The position numbers were made by a program, and so were the translations under genes. The notes below the pieces were generated by a model. That model was not told where the DNA came from. It saw nothing but the letters and a program-made list of their open reading frames with translations, and ran no database searches. This document shows positions 250-8,838 of a stretch of DNA of 64,000 nucleotides, in pieces (within the stretch, counting starts at the first letter, position 1; each line of letters begins with the position of its first letter). The stretch comes from Candidatus Parcubacteria bacterium (GTDB lineage Bacteria > Patescibacteriota > Minisyncoccia > Phycocordibacterales > JAKFXT01), in assembly GCA_021414235.1 (NCBI GenBank), contig JAIOOV010000004.1:409591-473590 (forward strand). Direction: 5' to 3'.

Positions 250-855
250 GTGGATATCTCCGCCATGACACGACCTGGAAACCAGAACAAGCTCTTTGAT
301 ACGGGACTCCAGCTCCCTACGGGCCTGGTGTATAGGCCTGATTTCATTACCCCAGAAGAAGAACTGGAAATCCTCTCTTACATTGAAGACCTGCCGCTCG
401 AAGAGGCGCAATACAAGGAATACACCGCCAAGCGACGACACTTCTCCCTCGGCTGGGGCTATGATTTCGATAATAAGAAATTCATTCCCGGCCCTCCCCT
501 TCCGCCCTTTCTCCGTCCTGTGCAGATTCGTATCGGCAAATGGCTCGATATAGATCCAAAGAGGATCGTAGAAGCCCTCATTAACGAATACTCTCCTGGC
601 TCTGCCCTCGGCTGGCATCGAGACAACGAAGGCTTTGAGCATGTCATCGGTCTCTCGCTTTCAGGCTGGGCACGCATGCGCTTCCGTCCCATCAAACGCC
701 GTGAGGAAAAGAAAGATCTGAAGGATGTGGTAGCTCTGGAGCTAGAGCCACGCTCCGTCTACGTGATGCAAAAAGATATCCGCTGGAACTGGCAGCATTC
801 TGTGGCCAAGACTAAAACGATGCGGTATTCGATTACTTTTCGGACGCTACCCTAA
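250..855 (+). CDS. alkB: AlkB-like 2-oxoglutarate/Fe(II)-dependent dioxygenase (alkylated nucleic-acid repair)
   Basis: 201-aa ORF with AlkB-like layout: GWHRDNE (HxD iron ligands), a later His (WQHSV) and RxxxxxR near the C-terminus. Size and motif spacing are typical of the AlkB family. Confidence 0.7.
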   Translation: MDISAMTRPGNQNKLFDTGLQLPTGLVYRPDFITPEEELEILSYIEDLPLEEAQYKEYTAKRRHFSLGWGYDFDNKKFIPGPPLPPFLRPVQIRIGKWLDIDPKRIVEALINEYSPGSALGWHRDNEGFEHVIGLSLSGWARMRFRPIKRREEKKDLKDVVALELEPRSVYVMQKDIRWNWQHSVAKTKTMRYSITFRTLP

Positions 856-857
856 AT

Positions 858-1376
858 TTATTCGTGTTTTTCACCTTCATTAACTGGAGTTTCTTTCGAA
901 GCCAAGTCGATTTTTTGTAAAGATCTTTTTAGAATGCCTTCTTCGATAGTATCAATTGCTTCAATCATTTCGGTAAAACGCGTATCAGATAAAATCTTAT
1001 TACCTAATTTACAAGCTTCTTCGATTTCTAACTCAAATTTTTGAGAAAAAATCTGAGTTACCAAATCGTGCAGTATTTTATTTCTAATTACGCGATATGC
1101 GTGTAAATTTTTCTTTAAATCCTCATTCAAAACACCACTCTCAAAGAGAAAATCAATCAGACTGTATAAACTTTTTTGAGTGAAAGTGTCACGTATTTCT
1201 TGAGCAATCTTATCAAGCTCAGAGTTGGTATTTTGTTTGGTGATTCTAAAAACCTGAAAATCAACAATCATTTTAACTACTGCCTCCAGGTACGCACTTT
1301 GCAATAAAAAAGCTTCAAGAAATTGTTTTTTCAAAACAGAACCTTGGATATGATTCCTTAATTCTTGATTTTTCAT
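858..1376 (-). CDS. HEPN-motif protein (Rx4HxY-like, putative RNase/toxin-like), AT-rich horizontally acquired gene
   Basis: 172-aa ORF in a ~33% GC segment (neighbours ~58%). Contains 'AYRVIRNKILHDL', matching the HEPN Rx4-6H / HepT-like RNxxxHx[YL] motif. Its ATG (1374-1376) overlaps the alaS TGA stop (1373-1375) as ATGA. Its stop at 858 is 2 nt from the alkB stop at 855. Confidence 0.5.
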   Translation of the reverse strand: MKNQELRNHIQGSVLKKQFLEAFLLQSAYLEAVVKMIVDFQVFRITKQNTNSELDKIAQEIRDTFTQKSLYSLIDFLFESGVLNEDLKKNLHAYRVIRNKILHDLVTQIFSQKFELEIEEACKLGNKILSDTRFTEMIEAIDTIEEGILKRSLQKIDLASKETPVNEGEKHE

Positions 1377-3244
1377 CGAGATTCGAGAACAGCCTTTATC
1401 CTCCTCACCCCAGCGCTCACCGCTTCTTCCTTAGAAATCTTAAACACACCCATCTCGCCAGTGCGCGTAACATGCGGCCCACCGCAGAACTCAAGGCTGA
1501 AAGGCTTACCATCCTTCCCCATCACGGTATATATAGAAACCGTATCGCCATACTTCTCGCCGAAGAGTCCGATAGCTCCACGATTACGTGCCTCTTCAAG
1601 CGACACTTCCTCACGAACAACTTCCAGATCCTCCTGGATCTTCTCATTCACCAAGGCTTCAACCTTAGCGATCTCCTCGGGAGTCATCTTCTGCGGATGC
1701 GCAAAGTCGAAGCGCAGGCGCTCAGGAGTGATGTTGCTGCCTTTCTGCTGGACGTTCTCACCCAAGACAGTGCGAAGTGCCTTGTGGAGGAGGTGCGTGG
1801 CAGTGTGGTACTTCACCTCGATATCGGAGTGCCCCGCAAGGCCCCCTTTAAACTTCTTCTCCGAGCCAGCACGCGAGAGATCTTGATGCTTCTTCATCTC
1901 CTCATTAAATCCAGCACGATCCACCTCTAGCCCCCTCTCCGCTGCGAGCTCCTCAGTCACTTCAATAGGAAAACCATAGCTCTGGTAGAGATTGAAAGCT
2001 TCCAGGCCTGAGACATGATCGCCCGTACGGCGAGAGAACTCCTTGAGCCCCTTCTGGAGGGTCTCACGGAACTTCTCCTCCTCTTTGCGAATCTCCTCTA
2101 CGATCGCAGCCCTGCGCTCGCCCAGCTCTTTGTAGTCAGCCGCATAGGTATCAATCACCCCTTCCGCAAACATATGAAAATTACCCTCTTGGACGCCAAG
2201 GATATCGGAGAAGCGGATAGCGCGGCGAAGGAGACGGCGGAGAACATACCCCTGGTCAGTGTTAGACGGGATCACCCCATCGCCGATGAGGAATACGGAG
2301 GCACGGAGGTGATCCATGACCACACGAAAGGCGCGAGTCATCTTCTCGTCCTTGCCATACTCTCTACCAGATACCCGCTCTATGGCCTCCCGAAGATTCT
2401 GGAAGAGATCCGTCTTGAATACATCCGGATCATCATTCAGCGCCGCAGCGATACGCTCCAAGCCTCCGCCGAAGTCCACATTGGGAGCAGGCAGCTTCTC
2501 GAAAGCACCATTCTTCTTCACATACTGCATGAACACGTTGTTACCGATCTCTAAGAAACGGCCGCAATCGCAGTTCACATGGCACGGCTCATCCTTCCAG
2601 ATGGATTCCTCGTGCAGCCCACGCTCAATGCCAAAGTCCCAGAACATCTCCGTGTCAGGTCCCCCTGGTTCCCCTTCCGGCATGTTCTCTGGTACACCTG
2701 CACGACTCCACCAGTTCTTCTTGTCGCCATAATAAAAGATGCGCGCTCCCTGCGTACCCTTAGTCTCGGCATCTTCTGCTATTTGTGCATCTACGCCCTT
2801 CTCAGAGAGAAGCTTGACCCACAGCCCGGCAGCTTCAGTATCACGAGGTATTCCAAGCGCTTCGTTCCCCGCGTGGCAGGTGAAGTAGAGACGCTTAGGA
2901 TCAAGACCAATCTCGGTCGTCAAAAACTCAAACATCCAAGGGATCTGTTCTTGTTTGAAATAGTCACCAAAGGACCAGTTACCGAGCATCTCGAAGAAAG
3001 TAGTATGGCGATTGTCCCCCACCTCCTCGATATCTTGCGCACGAAAAGACTTCTGGCTGTCGGCCACGCGCTTGCCCAGAGGGTGCGGCTGGCCCAGGAA
3101 GTACGGAAGCATCGGCTGCATGCCAGAACCCGTAAAGAGAGTCGTCGGGTCGTTCTCAGGAACGAGTGGGGCCGAAGGCACGATGGCGTGGCCCTTTGAT
3201 TTGAAAAACTCCAGGTATTTGCTCCGTATTTCGCTAGTGTTCAC
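1373..3244 (-). CDS. alaS: alanine--tRNA ligase (short form lacking the C-terminal C-Ala/DHHA1 domain)
   Basis: Class II AlaRS signatures: N-terminal TSEIRSKYLEFFKSKGHAIVPSAPLVPENDPTTLF, FWDFGIERG, and an editing domain with HTATHLLH and CGGPH zinc motifs. The ORF extends upstream to 3454, but a GTG at ~3244 (ITG-V-NTSEIR) aligns with canonical AlaRS N-termini. The protein ends right after the editing domain. Confidence 0.9.
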   Translation of the reverse strand: MNTSEIRSKYLEFFKSKGHAIVPSAPLVPENDPTTLFTGSGMQPMLPYFLGQPHPLGKRVADSQKSFRAQDIEEVGDNRHTTFFEMLGNWSFGDYFKQEQIPWMFEFLTTEIGLDPKRLYFTCHAGNEALGIPRDTEAAGLWVKLLSEKGVDAQIAEDAETKGTQGARIFYYGDKKNWWSRAGVPENMPEGEPGGPDTEMFWDFGIERGLHEESIWKDEPCHVNCDCGRFLEIGNNVFMQYVKKNGAFEKLPAPNVDFGGGLERIAAALNDDPDVFKTDLFQNLREAIERVSGREYGKDEKMTRAFRVVMDHLRASVFLIGDGVIPSNTDQGYVLRRLLRRAIRFSDILGVQEGNFHMFAEGVIDTYAADYKELGERRAAIVEEIRKEEEKFRETLQKGLKEFSRRTGDHVSGLEAFNLYQSYGFPIEVTEELAAERGLEVDRAGFNEEMKKHQDLSRAGSEKKFKGGLAGHSDIEVKYHTATHLLHKALRTVLGENVQQKGSNITPERLRFDFAHPQKMTPEEIAKVEALVNEKIQEDLEVVREEVSLEEARNRGAIGLFGEKYGDTVSIYTVMGKDGKPFSLEFCGGPHVTRTGEMGVFKISKEEAVSAGVRRIKAVLESR

Positions 3245-3329
3245 GCCCGTTATGCTAGCAGAATAAAGGCTTTTTGAGTAGTAAAAAGAAAAGCCTACGG
3301 CCCCGGAGGGCTTTCGGCTTCTCATTCGG

Positions 3330-3692
3330 TTATTGCGGAATCGGTTCGCCTCGCCGGCGTCCGCGCTTGAGAAGTGCAGCATCAAGGTCACCCATGACCT
3401 TCTTTCCGAAATTGGGCACCCTGAGCAGCTCTTGCTCGGTCTTCGCCAGAACATCTCGAATGGTCCTGATCTCGCTGTTCAGGAGAGGATTTAGCACCCT
3501 CGCCGGCAAATGAAGCGCATCAAGAGACTCATCGAGGCCGATAGTGGCCTCAGCAGTACCCTTCATCAGGGCAAGAAACGCGGCGAGTTCCTCAGGGGTC
3601 AGCTTTTCCCGGAGAAACGAAGCCGCGACACACGAACGACACGGCGCGAGAGGAACACACCTCTCTTCGTGGTCTATCAAGAACATCTTCAT
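3330..3692 (-). CDS. small protein with RNAP alpha-CTD-like helix-hairpin-helix domain and N-terminal Cys cluster
   Basis: The C-terminal ELLRVPNFGKKVMGDLDAALLKRG resembles the RpoA C-terminal HhH domain. The N-terminal HEERCVPLAPCRSC carries 3 Cys. Preferred start is the ATG at 3692 (MKMFLID) with a GGAAGGTG-like RBS. The ORF could extend to 3758. Confidence 0.45.
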   Translation of the reverse strand: MKMFLIDHEERCVPLAPCRSCVAASFLREKLTPEELAAFLALMKGTAEATIGLDESLDALHLPARVLNPLLNSEIRTIRDVLAKTEQELLRVPNFGKKVMGDLDAALLKRGRRRGEPIPQ

Positions 3693-3770: not shown

Positions 3771-4370
3771 TTATCTATCCTTGTTAAAACGACTCACGAA
3801 CAAGAAAGTAGTCAGATTCTTTTTCTTATCCTGCAGGTTCTCCCGGAGGATATCGAGTCCATAGATCTCCCCTGCAGTGCGCGAAGCGATGACTGCAGTA
3901 CCTAGGGGTAGCTTGCCCTTGGCGAGCGCGCTTGCGGCGGTAGCCTGATCTACCAGGATACCGTCGCCAGAGACAGTCTTCGCCTTTGGATAGAGCTTGG
4001 TGACAGTCTTCTTGGTCTGCGCGAGCGCCTGAGGGTGGGACATGATGATCTTTATATCCTTCTCCTTCGTCCCCGGCTTCGCCAAGAGACAATGCCGCAC
4101 CGGCAGCTTATAGCTATCCAAAATCTTGCAGTTGAACTCAGAGAGCGCATTGACCGTCTCCCAGACCGTGCCGCCGATGGAGTTCTCGATAGCAAAGATC
4201 CCGCGATCAATCTTCTTCTCATGGAGTGCCTCGAGTACTCTCCTCGTTGTATAGAGATATTTTATGCGGAACTTAGTAATCCCCTTCTCTTTCGTATAGA
4301 GACGGATGGCTTCCTCATTGAAGCTCCCCTCTCCTCCTTGGATACCGATGACGAGCGTGTCAGATGCCAT
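3771..4370 (-). CDS. pheA: prephenate dehydratase catalytic domain protein (no ACT regulatory domain)
   Basis: PDT-domain motifs: IGIQGGEGSFNEEA, ENSIGGTV, SHPQALAQ and NLTTFLFVSR (the TRF-like motif). Only 199 aa, so no ACT domain. The start codon abuts the pepF stop. Confidence 0.7.
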   Translation of the reverse strand: MASDTLVIGIQGGEGSFNEEAIRLYTKEKGITKFRIKYLYTTRRVLEALHEKKIDRGIFAIENSIGGTVWETVNALSEFNCKILDSYKLPVRHCLLAKPGTKEKDIKIIMSHPQALAQTKKTVTKLYPKAKTVSGDGILVDQATAASALAKGKLPLGTAVIASRTAGEIYGLDILRENLQDKKKNLTTFLFVSRFNKDR

Positions 4371-6155
4371 TTATTTCTCCCCCGTAATCTCCGGTAAGAG
4401 TTTCTCGAACTCATCGATATCCGCCTTAATACTCTTCAGTCCCTCCTCGAAGACTCCAATATCGAGGGTATTGAGGCCAATATCCTTGAAGATCTGCTCC
4501 GGCTTCTTGCTTCCTCCTGCCGTGAGGAACTGATCAATCTTCTTGATGTAGGCAGGATCTTTCTTGTAGCGGCTGACGAGCGCCTTGCTGATGAGCTGGC
4601 CATAGGCGTAGGAGTAGACGTAGAAGGGTCTGCGGAAATGCATCACCGCTACGAAGAAGTAGCCGTCGCTCTCGGAGAGCTTGAAGCCCTTACCCAAGTA
4701 CGACTGCATATGCTTGTTGAGGAGCGCGGCGATGCTGTCCTTGTCCAAGAAGCCTTCTTTGCGCACTCTCTGGTGGAACTCGAGCTCGAAGTTGAAGAAG
4801 GCGATCTGGCGGAAGATGGTCTGGATGTCGTCCTGAATCTTGTCATGGAGCGCGATGGCGCGATCCCGCCCAGAGAGCTTCTTGAAGATGGAGTCGAACA
4901 CCAACGCTTCAAAGAGCGTGCTGGCGGTCTCGGCTACAGAAGTGGAATAGTCCTGATACAGCACAGGCTGCGCTTTGCTCTTCTCCGTATGTATTGCATG
5001 CCCCATCTCATGCGCCAGGGTCATGGTGGAGTTGAGATTGTCCACGTGGTTGAGCAGCACCATGGTAGGCATATTGGTATTACCGGAGCAGTAAGCTCCG
5101 CCTGCCTTGCCCTTCTTGGGAAAGACATCAATCTGCCCGCTCTTTAGGAAGCGATCGAGAATAGAACCGTAGGATTCATCCAATCCGTAGAAAACATCAC
5201 GCACGGTTGTGAGGCCCTCTTCAAACGGAATCTTTTCATCAGTTTTTCCTATGGAAACGGCCCTATCCGCATATTCCATATGCGGAAGTCCGAGTGCCTT
5301 CTGCTTAAGTGCGTGGAAGCGCTGGCTGAGCGGGAAGCCCTTGCTCACCGCCTTCACTAGATTAAGGATGGCGCGCTCATCATTCTCATAGCCGATGATG
5401 GTAGCTGAGTACGGTTCCTTGTATCCCCGCAGCTCATCACTCACCTTCTTGTTTTCCGCGACCGCGTTCATCTCCCCCTCTGCAAAATCTCCCACCCCGC
5501 GGAGCGCCTCTGTGACCATGCGTCCGAGCGCGCGACGGTCTTCCGTAGGCAGCATGGAAATCTTGTTCATGGCTCCCGCAAGAGGCATCTCCTCGCCCTT
5601 GAAATTGATGGTGAGCTTGCGCTGCGCCTTCTCCACGCCATCCACCCAGAGTTCGGAAGAAGCTTTGCGCTTGAGGCTGAGGATCTTCTCCTCCGGTTCA
5701 GAGAGATTGTACTTGGCCGTCTCAAAGGTACTTTCGAGGAAATAGCGGTAGGGAGCGAAGCGAGGACTCTTCAAAAGTTTCTTCTGGAAGGCTTTATCAA
5801 TCTTCCCCAAAGAGAGTCCGAAGAAGATGACTTCGTTCCCTGCCTTGGTGAAGCGGTCAGAGAGACGGTTAATGAGGGCTTCGGCTTCACGATTCTCGGA
5901 ATCAAGTTCCCTTACAAAATTGACGTACATGAGGGCCTTTGCGGGAATAGCCTCGAGCGTCTCCAGGTCCTTAAGTGCAGAAAGTAGCTTGCCTTCATTC
6001 TTGAGATAATCCGACTTTCCTTTATATTTCTTAGCGAAAGCAAGTATTGCCTTCTCAAGCGCCCGCGTATCCTTCTCTATTTTCGGATCCTTGAGCGAGG
6101 AGTAGTCGTAGGTCTTGAGATCCCAGCCGGTTTGATAGTTCTTGAGAGGAGGCAT
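4371..6155 (-). CDS. pepF: oligoendopeptidase F (M3B family zinc metallopeptidase)
   Basis: 594 aa, HEMGHAIH (HExxH) zinc-binding motif. Size and layout typical of PepF. Confidence 0.85.
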   Translation of the reverse strand: MPPLKNYQTGWDLKTYDYSSLKDPKIEKDTRALEKAILAFAKKYKGKSDYLKNEGKLLSALKDLETLEAIPAKALMYVNFVRELDSENREAEALINRLSDRFTKAGNEVIFFGLSLGKIDKAFQKKLLKSPRFAPYRYFLESTFETAKYNLSEPEEKILSLKRKASSELWVDGVEKAQRKLTINFKGEEMPLAGAMNKISMLPTEDRRALGRMVTEALRGVGDFAEGEMNAVAENKKVSDELRGYKEPYSATIIGYENDERAILNLVKAVSKGFPLSQRFHALKQKALGLPHMEYADRAVSIGKTDEKIPFEEGLTTVRDVFYGLDESYGSILDRFLKSGQIDVFPKKGKAGGAYCSGNTNMPTMVLLNHVDNLNSTMTLAHEMGHAIHTEKSKAQPVLYQDYSTSVAETASTLFEALVFDSIFKKLSGRDRAIALHDKIQDDIQTIFRQIAFFNFELEFHQRVRKEGFLDKDSIAALLNKHMQSYLGKGFKLSESDGYFFVAVMHFRRPFYVYSYAYGQLISKALVSRYKKDPAYIKKIDQFLTAGGSKKPEQIFKDIGLNTLDIGVFEEGLKSIKADIDEFEKLLPEITGEK

Positions 6156-6171
6156 GTGAGTACAGGATTAA

Positions 6172-6594
6172 TTACTTGAAAGCGATGAGGACAGCTCCAG
6201 CGGTAATGAGGAGGGCTCCGAGGGCTGTTTTTACCGTGAGCGCCTCCCCCAGGAAGAGCGCTGCGAAGATTATCACCAATACGATGCTGAGGCGATCGAT
6301 GGCGGAGACGCCGCTTGCCGTACCGCTCTGAAGCGCCAGGAAATAAAATATCCAGGAGAGCGCGCCCGCAATAGCTGAGAGCACGATGAAGCCAAACACC
6401 TTGGAGCCGAGGAATTCTCCCGTGAGCTTAGAGAACGATCCTGCGAAGAAGGCTACTGGAAGCAAAAAGAGCGTCATCACCACCGCCCGCAATGTAGTAG
6501 CGAGGGTTGAATCCACCCCCTTCACCCCGATCTTGCCGAAGATGGCGGTAGCCGCCGCGAGGACTGCCGAGAGAAACGCATAAAGCATCCACAT
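6172..6594 (-). CDS. small polytopic membrane protein, tentatively DMT/EamA-type
   Basis: 140 aa with 4 predicted TM helices. The EamA/DMT half-domain assignment rests only on this size and hydrophobicity pattern, not on a conserved motif. Confidence 0.55.
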   Translation of the reverse strand: MWMLYAFLSAVLAAATAIFGKIGVKGVDSTLATTLRAVVMTLFLLPVAFFAGSFSKLTGEFLGSKVFGFIVLSAIAGALSWIFYFLALQSGTASGVSAIDRLSIVLVIIFAALFLGEALTVKTALGALLITAGAVLIAFK

Positions 6595-6604
6595 AGGTTT
6601 GTTG

Positions 6605-7177
6605 TTAGCAATTAAACACCTCCTTGCCGCGCTTTACCATTTCCTGGTATTCCGCGACGATCGGGCTCTCCAGACGACGCTCCAGCACCCCGAGAACTTC
6701 CCGATAGAACCACATCTGCTCCTCGATAGGTACGCGGAAGTTCTGCCAGATGGCCTCGCCATGGATATCGAAATCACTGATGGTGGTAGAGAGGTTGTGG
6801 ATCTTGTCCGCCGCAGCGATCATGAGCCCCTCCGCACTCGCCTGCTCCAGGCCCTCCACATACGCACGCTTCCTGTCCTTCCAAGAGATCGGGGAACCAT
6901 CCCTCTCCTTCTCTTCGGTGACCTCAACCACCATCATCGCCACCCGTGAACCGAAATCGGCCTCAAGCGCCTCACGAGTATAGCCGGTGTCCTCGAGCGA
7001 ATCATGCAGGAGTCCGCCGATGACCACATCCTCGTCCTTGGCATGATTAGAGAGAAGCGCCGCCACCGAGAAGAGATGGCTCACATAGGGAATATCCCGC
7101 TTCGCCCGGCGCTTCTGTCCGTCATGGAGAAGGCAGGCGGCCCTGATGGCTTGTTCGATGCGCGGAGTAAGGTACAT
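6605..7177 (-). CDS. HD-domain (p)ppGpp hydrolase-like protein (small alarmone hydrolase / SpoT N-terminal-like)
   Basis: H...HD...LHDSLEDT pattern (LLHDGQ, LLHDSLEDT) as in RelA/SpoT hydrolase HD domains. 190 aa, with no synthetase domain. Confidence 0.65.
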   Translation of the reverse strand: MYLTPRIEQAIRAACLLHDGQKRRAKRDIPYVSHLFSVAALLSNHAKDEDVVIGGLLHDSLEDTGYTREALEADFGSRVAMMVVEVTEEKERDGSPISWKDRKRAYVEGLEQASAEGLMIAAADKIHNLSTTISDFDIHGEAIWQNFRVPIEEQMWFYREVLGVLERRLESPIVAEYQEMVKRGKEVFNC

Positions 7178-7179
7178 GG

Positions 7180-7782
7180 TTAATTTACGTGAAAAGGGAT
7201 ATGAGCGAAATCTTTAAGAAGGGTTTCTTTCAAGGCAGGATTATAAATGGCGGAAGCCGGATGGTACAGTGGAAAGATAGTAATCTCTCCGTACGAAGTC
7301 CTTGCAGGAAGAGCCTGCCCATGGAGCGCGCCGATAGTGTCGAGGCGATCCTCAAGCCCCAGCTTCTGCATGACGTAGACCATCGAGTAGCGCCCGAGAG
7401 TGGCGATCACCTTCGGCTGTATGATCTCGATCTGCCGATCAAGGAACGGTCCGTAGCTCGCGATCTCTTCCGGCAGCGGATCGCGGTTCTGAGGCGGGCG
7501 ATCCTTCACGATATTGGTGATATAGATGTCCTCGCGCGGGATATGCACGGAAGCTAAGAGCTCGTCGAGGATCTTGCCCGCGGCCCCGCAGAAGGGGCGG
7601 CCGGTCTTAGCTTCATTCCTCCCTGGAGCCTCCCCTACAAACATGATCTCTGCATCACAGCTTCCCTCACCGATCACCGGCAGATACTTGTTCTCCGTGC
7701 GATATGCGTAAAGCGGAGAGGAAGTAAGCGCCAGCACCTCTCCCTCTATCTGCCGCATCTTCTCTTTCTTCCCCTCGTTCAT
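7180..7782 (-). CDS. udg: uracil-DNA glycosylase, family 4
   Basis: Has the GEAPG motif (MFVGEAPGRNEAKTGRPFCGAAG) and the C-terminal HPSP-like motif (YHPASAIY), characteristic of family-4 UDG. Confidence 0.85.
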   Translation of the reverse strand: MNEGKKEKMRQIEGEVLALTSSPLYAYRTENKYLPVIGEGSCDAEIMFVGEAPGRNEAKTGRPFCGAAGKILDELLASVHIPREDIYITNIVKDRPPQNRDPLPEEIASYGPFLDRQIEIIQPKVIATLGRYSMVYVMQKLGLEDRLDTIGALHGQALPARTSYGEITIFPLYHPASAIYNPALKETLLKDFAHIPFHVN

Positions 7783-8060
7783 ATCTTGACCCCTTCCGCC
7801 CGAAGCTTCGCTACCTTGCGTTCAATACCTCCATTGTAGCCGCCCAGCTTGCCATCTGAACGGAGTACCCGATGGCATGGCACCTTAGGATCCTGATTGC
7901 GACTCATGACGGTACCCACCGCACGCGAGGCCCCCGGATTCCCCGCCTTCGCCGCTACCTCCTTGTAGGTCATGGTCTTTCCTTTGGGGATATCTTTGAC
8001 CACCGCGCGCACACGCTCAGCAAAGGATTTTATCTTAAACTCCGTGAGTCTTGATTTCAT
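7779..8060 (-). CDS. ogt: methylated-DNA--protein-cysteine methyltransferase, C-terminal (DNA-binding/active-site) domain only
   Basis: 93 aa containing the PCHRV active-site motif and a downstream HTH. There is no N-terminal domain. It overlaps udg by 4 nt (ATGA-type coupling). Confidence 0.8.
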   Translation of the reverse strand: MKSRLTEFKIKSFAERVRAVVKDIPKGKTMTYKEVAAKAGNPGASRAVGTVMSRNQDPKVPCHRVLRSDGKLGGYNGGIERKVAKLRAEGVKI

Positions 8061-8061
8061 A

Positions 8062-8838
8062 TTATTTCCTTACGAGAGCCTGCAGCTTCTTCCCCGCCGC
8101 TTCTCGATATGGACAATACTCGCAGGCATTACCCACCTTGGGTAATTTATCGCTCTCAAGGCAGGCCTTGATCTCGGGCAGGACCTTGTCGATCCACTCC
8201 GTCTCTCCTTCACACGGAATCACCGTTATCTCAAACTCAAGCTGCGCATCGAAAGCCGCCTTGTCCTTGCTCGCATTCGCGTACACGAAATACCCCGTCT
8301 TGGAGACTGGATATCCATTCTTACTCAAAAGCCACTGATATACGCCCATCTGCCGCTGGTACTGGGCTTCCCAGGCGGAATCAGCCAGCGTCTCGATCTT
8401 GCCGTCCTTGGACGTAGCCTTGTAATCGACAACAATGAGTTCACCCTCTGGGTTCTGCCAGACATCGTCCACTGCTCCGGAAATGACGAAACCGGTCTCC
8501 TTGTCGCGATATTCCACTCCCTTGAAATTCTCCCTCCAGACATCCATCTTCGGATCTGCAAAGGGTATGGCATCCACCCCATACGCCTTCATGAGCGGGT
8601 GCGTAGAGCCATTCGCTCGATGTACGTCGAATTCCTTCTTGAGGAGCGCGTCGACGGCAATGTTTAGAGTAAAAGACGGTCCGCGGGGACGCCCGGTGCC
8701 GAGCTTGTTATCTAAATAGAAACAACGCGGGCATTCTATGAAAAGGTCGATCTTGGAGCGGGACAGGCGCCACTTGGGACCACCGTAATTCCAATCCGGA
8801 CTTCGGTTGGGATTGTACATCTTTCGCTCATCGCTCAT
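8062..8838 (-). CDS. PD-(D/E)XK nuclease, Cas4/RecB-like with Fe-S cluster cysteines
   Basis: Has the VVDYKATS (D-x-K) catalytic motif. An N-terminal CPRC plus C-terminal CEYCPY matches the 1+3 Cys pattern of Cas4/AddB-type nucleases. No CRISPR array or cas genes are nearby. Confidence 0.65.
   Translation of the reverse strand: MSDERKMYNPNRSPDWNYGGPKWRLSRSKIDLFIECPRCFYLDNKLGTGRPRGPSFTLNIAVDALLKKEFDVHRANGSTHPLMKAYGVDAIPFADPKMDVWRENFKGVEYRDKETGFVISGAVDDVWQNPEGELIVVDYKATSKDGKIETLADSAWEAQYQRQMGVYQWLLSKNGYPVSKTGYFVYANASKDKAAFDAQLEFEITVIPCEGETEWIDKVLPEIKACLESDKLPKVGNACEYCPYREAAGKKLQALVRK

Follow-up and report, generated by a model that had tools for sequence, protein, structure and literature searches.

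A stand-alone HEPN protein, most likely of a DUF4145-like branch, encoded behind alaS in a Candidatus Parcubacteria genome

In the HepT-MntA type VII toxin-antitoxin system, the MNT protein AMPylates the tyrosine of an RX4HXY motif. HEPN proteins in general are described as metal-independent endoribonucleases with a composite site formed by a dimer; the active site consists of an Rx4-6H motif, with a polar residue after the arginine, that extends from where helix 3 ends into the loop preceding helix 4, and a second conserved acidic residue, often as part of Ex3[KR], is located in helix 2 (PMC3710099). For the DUF4145-like HEPN proteins (PF13643, clan CL0291), independence of MNT, association with R-M systems and fusions to sigma-type HTH domains were listed in 2013 (Anantharaman et al. 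2013, PMC3710099). A member of this group is RAZR/PD-T7-4, a zinc finger combined with a DUF4145 HEPN RNase that constitutes a single-protein abortive infection system; RAZR is triggered by phage ring proteins, cleaves single-stranded RNA including tRNA and rRNA, and loses defence upon mutation of the R/H residues (PMC13017515). SadR is a HEPN defence RNase of the Abi_C family, in which the N-terminus forms an HTH-like domain and the spacer is longer (PMC13590631), and MtlR, which is encoded in gammaproteobacterial mannitol operons, often lacks the motif (PMC3710099).

Here we describe a HEPN gene found in a 64-kb stretch of DNA from a Candidatus Parcubacteria bacterium, the whole of which is referred to as the window. 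The gene occupies 858..1376 on the reverse strand, starts with ATG and encodes a protein of 172 aa that is identical to P0001, an NCBI entry from a 544-kb contig, named 'DUF4145 domain-containing protein [Candidatus Parcubacteria bacterium]'. It is the last cistron of a co-directional array in which alaS (1373..3454, reverse strand; Pfam tRNA-synt_2c 3.4e-125, tRNA_SAD 1.8e-13) is the upstream gene. This alaS is of the short CPR form ending just after tRNA_SAD, and its start is probably downstream of 3454. On the other side, a convergent gene at 250..855 on the forward strand encodes an AlkB-like 2OG-Fe(II) dioxygenase (Pfam 2OG-FeII_Oxy_2 2.1e-15; NCBI name AlkB). These matches agree with the preliminary description of the locus, which had named the neighbours alaS and alkB and had stated that the 519-nt ORF fills the gap between them exactly. 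Indeed, its ATG (1376-1374) overlaps the TGA of alaS (1375-1373) as an ATGA at 1373..1376 on the reverse strand, a candidate termination-reinitiation coupling site at which the GC content switches sharply, and its TAA (860-858) is separated by a 2-nt gap from the TAA of the alkB-like gene (853-855). The window contains no paralogue of the HEPN gene.

When 1.84 billion cluster representatives were searched exhaustively with phmmer, 71 related clusters were found, 46 of them at E<1e-10. The relatives are full-length at 33-53% identity, agree in length, in the motifs and in starting with M1-K2, and come from many independent contigs. An ORF of extreme composition that fills an intergenic gap exactly might be taken for an ORF that arose by chance within an AT-rich spacer, or for an assembly artefact. 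However, full-length homologues with a conserved start, motifs and length, together with a confident structure model, effectively refute this explanation, and we assign it a negligible probability. The 172-aa ORF is a real gene, given that an identical protein is deposited at NCBI, that M1-K2 and the motifs recur in the 71 clusters of relatives, and that the model reaches a pLDDT of 92.6.

The peptide RVIRNKILHDL, from which a HEPN motif had initially been recognised, corresponds to residues 95-105 and is encoded at 1094-1062. Within it, R98-N99-K-I-L-H103 (1068..1085, reverse strand) forms the predicted catalytic motif RNxxxH (Rx4H); in an alignment of 40 family sequences, R98 was conserved in 40/40 and N99 and H103 in 39/40 each. 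The motif is preceded by Y94 (codon 1095-1097; 40/40) and followed by L105. RNxxxH was present in 72 of the 79 relatives collected, and five of the seven exceptions were fragments stopping short of the motif. The second HEPN signature, Ex3[KR], is represented by E31-x3-K35 (1272..1286, reverse strand), with E31 in 40/40 and K or R at position 35 in 37/40 sequences, and is part of a family-specific block, LEAFLxQSAYxE. An AlphaFold2 monomer model computed on the 40-sequence alignment (pLDDT 92.6, pTM 0.82) was all-helical. It places the Rx4H motif at the C-terminus of helix 85-104, ahead of loop 105-111, and E31-x3-K35 within the long helix 19-47. Helices 52-66 and 70-79 form an insert between HEPN helices 2 and 3, in line with the published anatomy of the fold, and the positions of the motifs match those published for HEPN active sites (PMC3710099). 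The window protein thus shows both the Rx4-6H motif and the helix-2 Ex3[KR] of the HEPN superfamily, of which it is a member: the conserved RNxxxH, the profile matches and the model all bear out the initial reading. Structural resemblances were to TTHA0636, HI0074, Csm6, YutE, HepT (7ae2 and 5yep), AF0298 and the HEPN domain of AbiA, and at lower rank to MtlR, Csx1, sacsin and Roquin; no match in the Foldseek comparison of the model with the PDB had E<1e-3, and a sequence-profile search of the PDB gave chance matches alone (E>0.1). No sensor domain was evident in the protein beyond a variable C-terminal helix.

Profile searches, which like structure prediction had been proposed as a check on the HEPN assignment, gave weak matches within the HEPN clan. 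The best Pfam match of the window protein was DUF4145 (E=5.6e-4, 20.4 bits vs a gathering threshold of 23.1), followed by Pfam HepT-like (E=0.022, 14.9 bits vs 23.5) and NCBIfam HepT_toxin (E=0.022, 14.6 vs 60); these three sub-threshold matches all cover residues 66-106. DUF4145 also matched 20 of 40 relatives at E<=0.1 (best 5.1e-6), and one relative, P0003, carries a precomputed PF13643 match. Other relatives matched RiboL-PSP-HEPN, HepT-like, HepT-like_2 or Swt1-HEPN, all of them HEPN-clan families. AbiJ_NTD4 matched the window protein faintly (E=0.12), PHROGs yielded weak and incoherent matches only, and PADLOC had no match to the window protein at E<=10. A second profile search with the 40-sequence alignment returned in-family matches only, with no bridge to canonical DUF4145 or other HEPN families. 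With DUF4145 proteins the window protein shares the helical HEPN fold and the best Pfam match, which extends to half of its relatives, and the two groups are also alike in occurring independently of MNT, in lying sometimes in R-M neighbourhoods and in being sometimes fused to sigma-type HTH domains. On the other hand, the window protein scores below the DUF4145 gathering threshold, it consists of the domain alone, whereas DUF4145 typically comes with REase, helicase, zinc-ribbon or TM partners, and its clade is discrete, found on CPR-like contigs alone and marked by its own LEAFLxQSAYxE block. From these sequence comparisons, the protein is most likely a stand-alone HEPN protein of a DUF4145-like branch. 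The DUF4145 domain assignment as such is already contained in the NCBI annotation.

A closer relationship to HepT had been suggested by the preliminary description, which called the motif HepT-like. HepT proteins (PF01934/NF047751) are similar in size, carry RNxxxH at the same helix position and provide the closest solved structures (8xdj, 7ae2, 5yep). However, the HepT profiles score far below threshold, the window protein has H-x-L instead of H-x-Y, and DUF4145 fits better than the HepT label. Residue H+2 was L in 67, I in 4 and F in 1 of the 72 relatives with the motif, and Y in none. As had been noted at the outset, no MNT antitoxin gene adjoins the HEPN gene in the window, its neighbours being alaS and the alkB-like gene; likewise, Pfam scans of the immediate neighbours of the family loci revealed no adjacent MNT, and an all-vs-all BLAST of ORFs within 1.5 kb at 17 loci revealed no shared neighbour family except for syntenic housekeeping genes of L001 and L004. 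A small antitoxin-like ORF might have been expected on other contigs; candidate ORFs were seen there, but no conserved partner emerged among approximately 20 loci. The candidates, an 80-aa ORF upstream in L002 and ORFs downstream in L001, L092, L095, L098 and L099, had no Pfam match, were mutually unrelated and were rejected. We therefore consider it improbable that the protein is the orphaned toxin of a toxin-antitoxin pair, be it of the HepT/MNT type (type VII) or another, whose antitoxin has been lost or is encoded elsewhere: neither the window nor the 17 compared loci offer an MNT or a conserved neighbour, the tyrosine that is AMPylated in RX4HXY is replaced in 72/72 relatives, and both HepT scores are low.

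Two single-protein defence RNases offer a different comparison. Identity with RAZR was rejected: the window protein contains a single Cys in its entire length and has a helical N-terminus in place of the N-terminal Cys4 zinc finger, its motif is spaced R-x4-H as compared with R146...H154 in RAZR, and PADLOC, as mentioned, gave no match. SadR and AbiJ come from another HEPN family, Abi_C, which has a longer spacer and an HTH-like domain at the N-terminus. The principle of one HEPN protein that carries an R-polar-x(n)-H motif and acts on its own as an RNase against phage or MGE could be common to them and the window protein if the latter is an RNase, as the analogy suggests.

The family to which the gene belongs was seen here on CPR/Patescibacteria-like contigs only, the available names being Parcubacteria and Minisyncoccia. 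In two genomes with the arrangement nrdA-nrdB-X-ddl, in which X is the family gene, the flanking proteins are 82%, 89% and 67% identical as compared with 33% for the X proteins, a sign that the gene at this fixed site diverges rapidly or is replaced. One copy (L100/L101) is frameshifted, and P0037 and P0064 have degenerate motifs that have lost the His. Several copies lie among R-M or mobile functions: L110 between genes for D12 and N4/N6 methylases, a DpnI-like protein, HNH, PIN_12 and a C5 methylase (an R-M island), L100 next to a MazF-like gene and one for a TraG/VirD4-like coupling protein, L092 in the vicinity of genes for a PIN protein and an AAA_15/AbiEii-like ATPase, and L098 next to a LexA-methylase fusion. 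Rarity and patchiness (71 clusters), fast divergence, decay and R-M/mobile contexts argue for the behaviour of a conflict gene. Other copies are located at the 3' end of co-oriented housekeeping genes, namely alaS (here), rpsI, glyA (6-nt gap), polA (14-nt gap), nrdB, a clpP-like gene and yceG, and some directly behind tRNA-Gln with a gap of 0-8 nt. That many family copies lie behind housekeeping genes and not in defence islands counts against a role in defence. At the tRNA-Gln loci, att-like repeats around the gene were limited to a 19-nt tRNA-end repeat at L091, which does not enclose the gene. On the basis of the sequences compared, this small clade, discrete and compact, with its own LEAFLxQSAYxE block and its recurrent placement behind housekeeping genes or tRNA-Gln, appears to be modestly new.

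The HEPN gene has a GC content of 31.2%, as compared with 55.6% for the window, in agreement with the initial impression of an AT-rich segment (~33%) in a GC-richer background (~58%). It is the lowest-GC 519-nt segment of the 64 kb, in which no other falls below 42%. Its GC3 is 0.26, as compared with 0.62 for alaS, 0.59 for alkB and 0.45-0.78 for every other large ORF; since this deficit concerns synonymous sites, the low GC content is not a by-product of a protein rich in Lys, Ile and Asn. The same tendency was found throughout the family, whose genes were AT-richer than their own flanks in 19/19 cases, with a mean difference of -11 points (Wilcoxon p=3e-5 for the 16 loci with long flanks) and with the window copy as the most extreme of the 19 (-25 GC points). 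The GC content of family genes follows that of the host only in part (r=0.71). The gene had been suspected of being a recently domesticated toxin, and its outlier status in GC and GC3 supports the recently acquired look; the segment 858-1376 looks recently acquired, and horizontal acquisition is most likely. Observations that count against horizontal acquisition are that the viral, phage and plasmid collections searched held no relatives, as judged from a scan of IMG/VR with a family pattern (none), a Foldseek comparison of the model with BFVD (nothing significant) and tblastn against INPHARED phages and PLSDB plasmids (no match), and that no empty alaS/alkB site was found among 80 alaS loci or in the contexts of AlkB homologues, the closest of which (77-78% identity) lie in unrelated contexts.

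The 80 alaS loci were fetched from CPR and other genomes (GTDB) with the C-terminal 300 aa of this AlaS and are at most 62% identical to it, except for a contig with 91% identity (L078) that ends before the 3' end of alaS. Within 4 kb of alaS, neither a member of the family nor an alkB-like gene was present at any of the 80 loci, and alaS adjoined the family gene in none of approximately 20 other family loci, which makes the coupling peculiar to this genome. The AlaS C-terminus aligns to its end in the 80 loci, so the insertion did not truncate or remodel alaS. The functional link of the HEPN gene to alaS or tRNA that had been put forward is not sustained by these comparisons, and its position next to alaS looks incidental. 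As for expression, no SD-like sequence was found within 20 nt of the HEPN ATG, the nearest GGAGG being ~24 nt upstream, and no promoter-like site was found for the gene on its strand; read-through from alaS with reinitiation at the ATGA would thus be the most economical route to its translation. Convergent transcripts of the alkB-like gene might end at a hairpin located at 1088-1106. Of the proposed translational coupling to alaS, the ATGA overlap is present and coupling may occur in this genome, which bears on expression and not on function, but a functional partnership does not follow, as the linkage is not conserved. A related reading is a domesticated housekeeping RNase that would be co-regulated with AlaRS and process or survey tRNA or mRNA. 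Co-expression with alaS, suggested by the ATGA overlap and the lack of an own SD or promoter, and the location of other members behind translation or replication genes (rpsI, glyA, polA, nrdB) or tRNA-Gln would fit such an enzyme. However, we regard it as very improbable: the linkage is unique to this genome (0/80 alaS loci, 0 of approximately 20 family loci), and a core function is disfavoured by the rarity and patchiness of the family, its foreign composition, its evolution at a faster pace than its neighbours and its decay in some lineages.

We favour, with moderate confidence, the explanation that the gene encodes a horizontally acquired, minimal, stand-alone DUF4145-like HEPN RNase of the conflict or defence type that is latent, and that the alaS neighbourhood is accidental. 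For the window protein we infer dimerisation, RNase activity, latency, a defence or conflict role and coupling as follows. By analogy with other HEPN proteins, two R98-N99-x3-H103 motifs in a dimer, with the help of E31/K35, would form a metal-independent endoribonuclease site, and cleavage of single-stranded RNA (tRNA, rRNA or mRNA) would then stop translation. As the protein has no antitoxin, latency is to be expected, presumably until a trigger such as phage infection, as for RAZR/PD-T7-4 and SadR/AbiJ. The gene would have inserted as the last cistron of the alaS array and would probably be expressed at a low level through read-through and ATGA stop-start coupling; it is plausible that such low expression, together with foreign codon usage, helps to keep the RNase harmless. 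Its role would be one in conflict, i.e. phage or MGE defence or stress-induced arrest. The sub-threshold DUF4145 score and the lack of a PADLOC match count against this explanation as a whole. An unguarded, constitutively co-expressed RNase should be toxic, which counts against its defence component.

A subset of the family is fused to DNA-binding domains, Sigma70_r4 and DnaA domain IV, and these fusions, which retain the motif, also fit a regulatory role, a further point against the defence reading. The main rival to an RNase is a non-catalytic, MtlR-like regulatory module that, as in MtlR/YggD, would bind proteins or ligands and, for instance, modulate transcription or replication factors. 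Such a module would account for expression without an antitoxin, and besides the fusions it is favoured by the housekeeping contexts. However, the catalytic signature is constrained, fusions included, with R98 and E31 invariant and N99 and H103 in 39/40 sequences, whereas non-catalytic HEPN branches typically lose the signature (PMC3710099). The likeness to MtlR/YggD is limited to structure, as the window family keeps its motif nearly invariant and occurs in an unrelated context, and there was no Pfam MtlR match at E<=1. Fast divergence, pseudogenes and R-M/mobile contexts also fit a conflict gene better, and we consider a regulatory module fairly unlikely.

If the favoured prediction of a latent RNase holds, the window protein would be among the smallest stand-alone HEPN RNases, without an antitoxin or a recognisable sensor, in a background of very small genomes with few annotated defence systems. 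The single-protein RNases of the DUF4145/RAZR type would thereby gain a CPR-specific branch, and the question would arise of how such an RNase stays silent. Taken as a single locus, the finding is an ordinary, already annotated domain assignment from which the suggested alaS/tRNA connection has fallen away. The traits seen across the family, whose genes are AT-richer than each host, sit behind housekeeping genes or tRNA-Gln and turn over rapidly at a fixed site, make a tidy case for the movement and expression of accessory conflict genes in Patescibacteria. A bolder version, which we judge distinctly unlikely, is that the family constitutes a CPR 'hitch-hiker' RNase cassette: a promoter-less and SD-less gene that would insert where highly expressed genes end (3' ends of alaS, rpsI, glyA, polA, nrdB) or at 0-8 nt behind tRNA-Gln, and whose expression would depend entirely on read-through, coupling or tRNA processing (leaderless mRNA). 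The product would be a minimal one-domain immune or addiction RNase, and the sister form on sigma-region-4 and DnaA domain IV would couple RNA cleavage to DnaA-box DNA. If true, such a cassette would show a HEPN effector of ultra-small genomes in an organisation not described before.

In the model of a fusion protein, disordered linkers joined three domains, and the packing between the domains was not informative. DnaA boxes near the fusion genes were dismissed as a general trait, with none beside the L102 copy and two perfect boxes beside the L007 copy. A candidate DNA for the DnaA-IV/sigma-4 part of the fusion proteins is TTATCCACA.

Relatives of the window HEPN protein (DUF4145-like, with the motif RNxxxH) were compared across CPR-like contigs, using loci fetched around the family genes and numbered in their own local coordinates. 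Each of the 19 genes compared (the window copy and those of loci L001-L009 and L090-L102) was AT-richer than its flanking DNA, by 3.6 to 24.6 percentage points (mean 11), and almost none carried a Shine-Dalgarno-like GGAGG 5-12 nt from the ATG. At one chromosomal site, nrdA-nrdB-X-ddl, where X is the family gene (L001 5001-5492; L004 5001-5561), the two HEPN proteins were just 33% identical, whereas the flanking proteins were 82%, 89% and 67% identical. Two additional uncharacterised ORFs (152 and 165 aa) were inserted ahead of ddl in L001 only.

Other copies lay among genes of mobile elements or of restriction-modification systems. In two independent assemblies (L100/L101 5001-5434) the family copy was frameshifted just ahead of its YREKRNNVLH motif and was followed by genes for a PemK/MazF-like toxin (5707-6165) and a TraG/VirD4-like coupling protein (6300-8306), which places this copy in a mobile-element context. 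Locus L110 (1-8438) was a restriction-modification-rich island, in which the family gene (4001-4438) was accompanied by genes for a D12 methylase, a DpnI-like protein, HNH, an N6_N4 methylase and DUF5655, followed by SAM synthetase, PIN_12 and a C5 methylase.

A tRNA-Gln gene was located upstream of the family gene, on the same strand, in 4 of 18 loci (L006 4929-5003; L009 620-705; L090 3968-4039; L091 4305-4376). The ATG of the family ORF immediately followed the tRNA 3' end in L006 and was separated from it by 8 nt in L009, while in L091 a GIY-YIG gene separated the tRNA from the HEPN gene, and a 19-nt att-like repeat of the tRNA-Gln 3' end was found at 4516-4534. The upstream position of the tRNA, the start codons at or near its end and the L091 repeat suggest that tRNA-Gln is an integration hotspot, or that the family gene is expressed either on a tRNA-mRNA co-transcript or from a leaderless mRNA. 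L091 further contained a 50-nt direct repeat (5642-5691 and 6306-6355; 98% identical), which includes a TATAAT-like box as well as a GAGG element. The first copy begins 42 nt past the HEPN gene stop and the second 664 nt beyond the first.

In approximately ten family clusters, disordered linkers connected the HEPN-like domain, with RNxxxH intact, to both a Sigma70_r4 HTH and DnaA domain IV, the latter identified as a Bac_DnaA_C match with E-values down to 1e-24. These proteins measured 305-321 aa (P0047, P0053, P0056, P0058, P0059, P0061, P0066, P0069, P0070 and P0076), and a further fusion protein of 521 aa, P0044, carried additional HTH repeats at its N-terminus. Sigma-HTH fusions of DUF4145 were already on record in 2013 (PMC3710099); we found no description of the HEPN and DnaA-IV combination in the literature. 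Directly downstream of one fusion gene (L007 6001-6942), a gene-free stretch of 860 nt (6943-7805) held two perfect DnaA boxes (TTATCCACA; 7301-7309 and 7604-7612) on either side of a minus-strand tRNA-Gly (7387-7473), with approximately 0.1 exact matches expected by chance across the whole locus. Since no DnaA boxes were seen adjoining the fusion gene of L102 (3795-4745), this arrangement is not general.

Within the window HEPN gene, a terminator-like hairpin and T-run (TTACGCGATATGCGTGTAA ATTTTTCTTT; 1088-1106, plus strand) overlapped the codons for HAYRVI, approximately 230 nt beyond the stop of the convergent alkB-like gene. It could terminate alkB-like transcripts, leaving the 3' third of the HEPN mRNA covered by an antisense RNA. 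Both the hairpin and a nearby 14-nt AT-rich inverted repeat (1029-1042/1047-1060; 93% complementary) may, alternatively, have arisen by chance in AT-rich DNA. For the adjoining alaS ORF (1373-3454, minus strand; listed start 3454), the class II core domain began only with residue 75, which puts the probable true start near 3240. The encoded AlaS terminated directly after the tRNA_SAD domain, a short form without the C-Ala domain, as did AlaS in 80 related loci.
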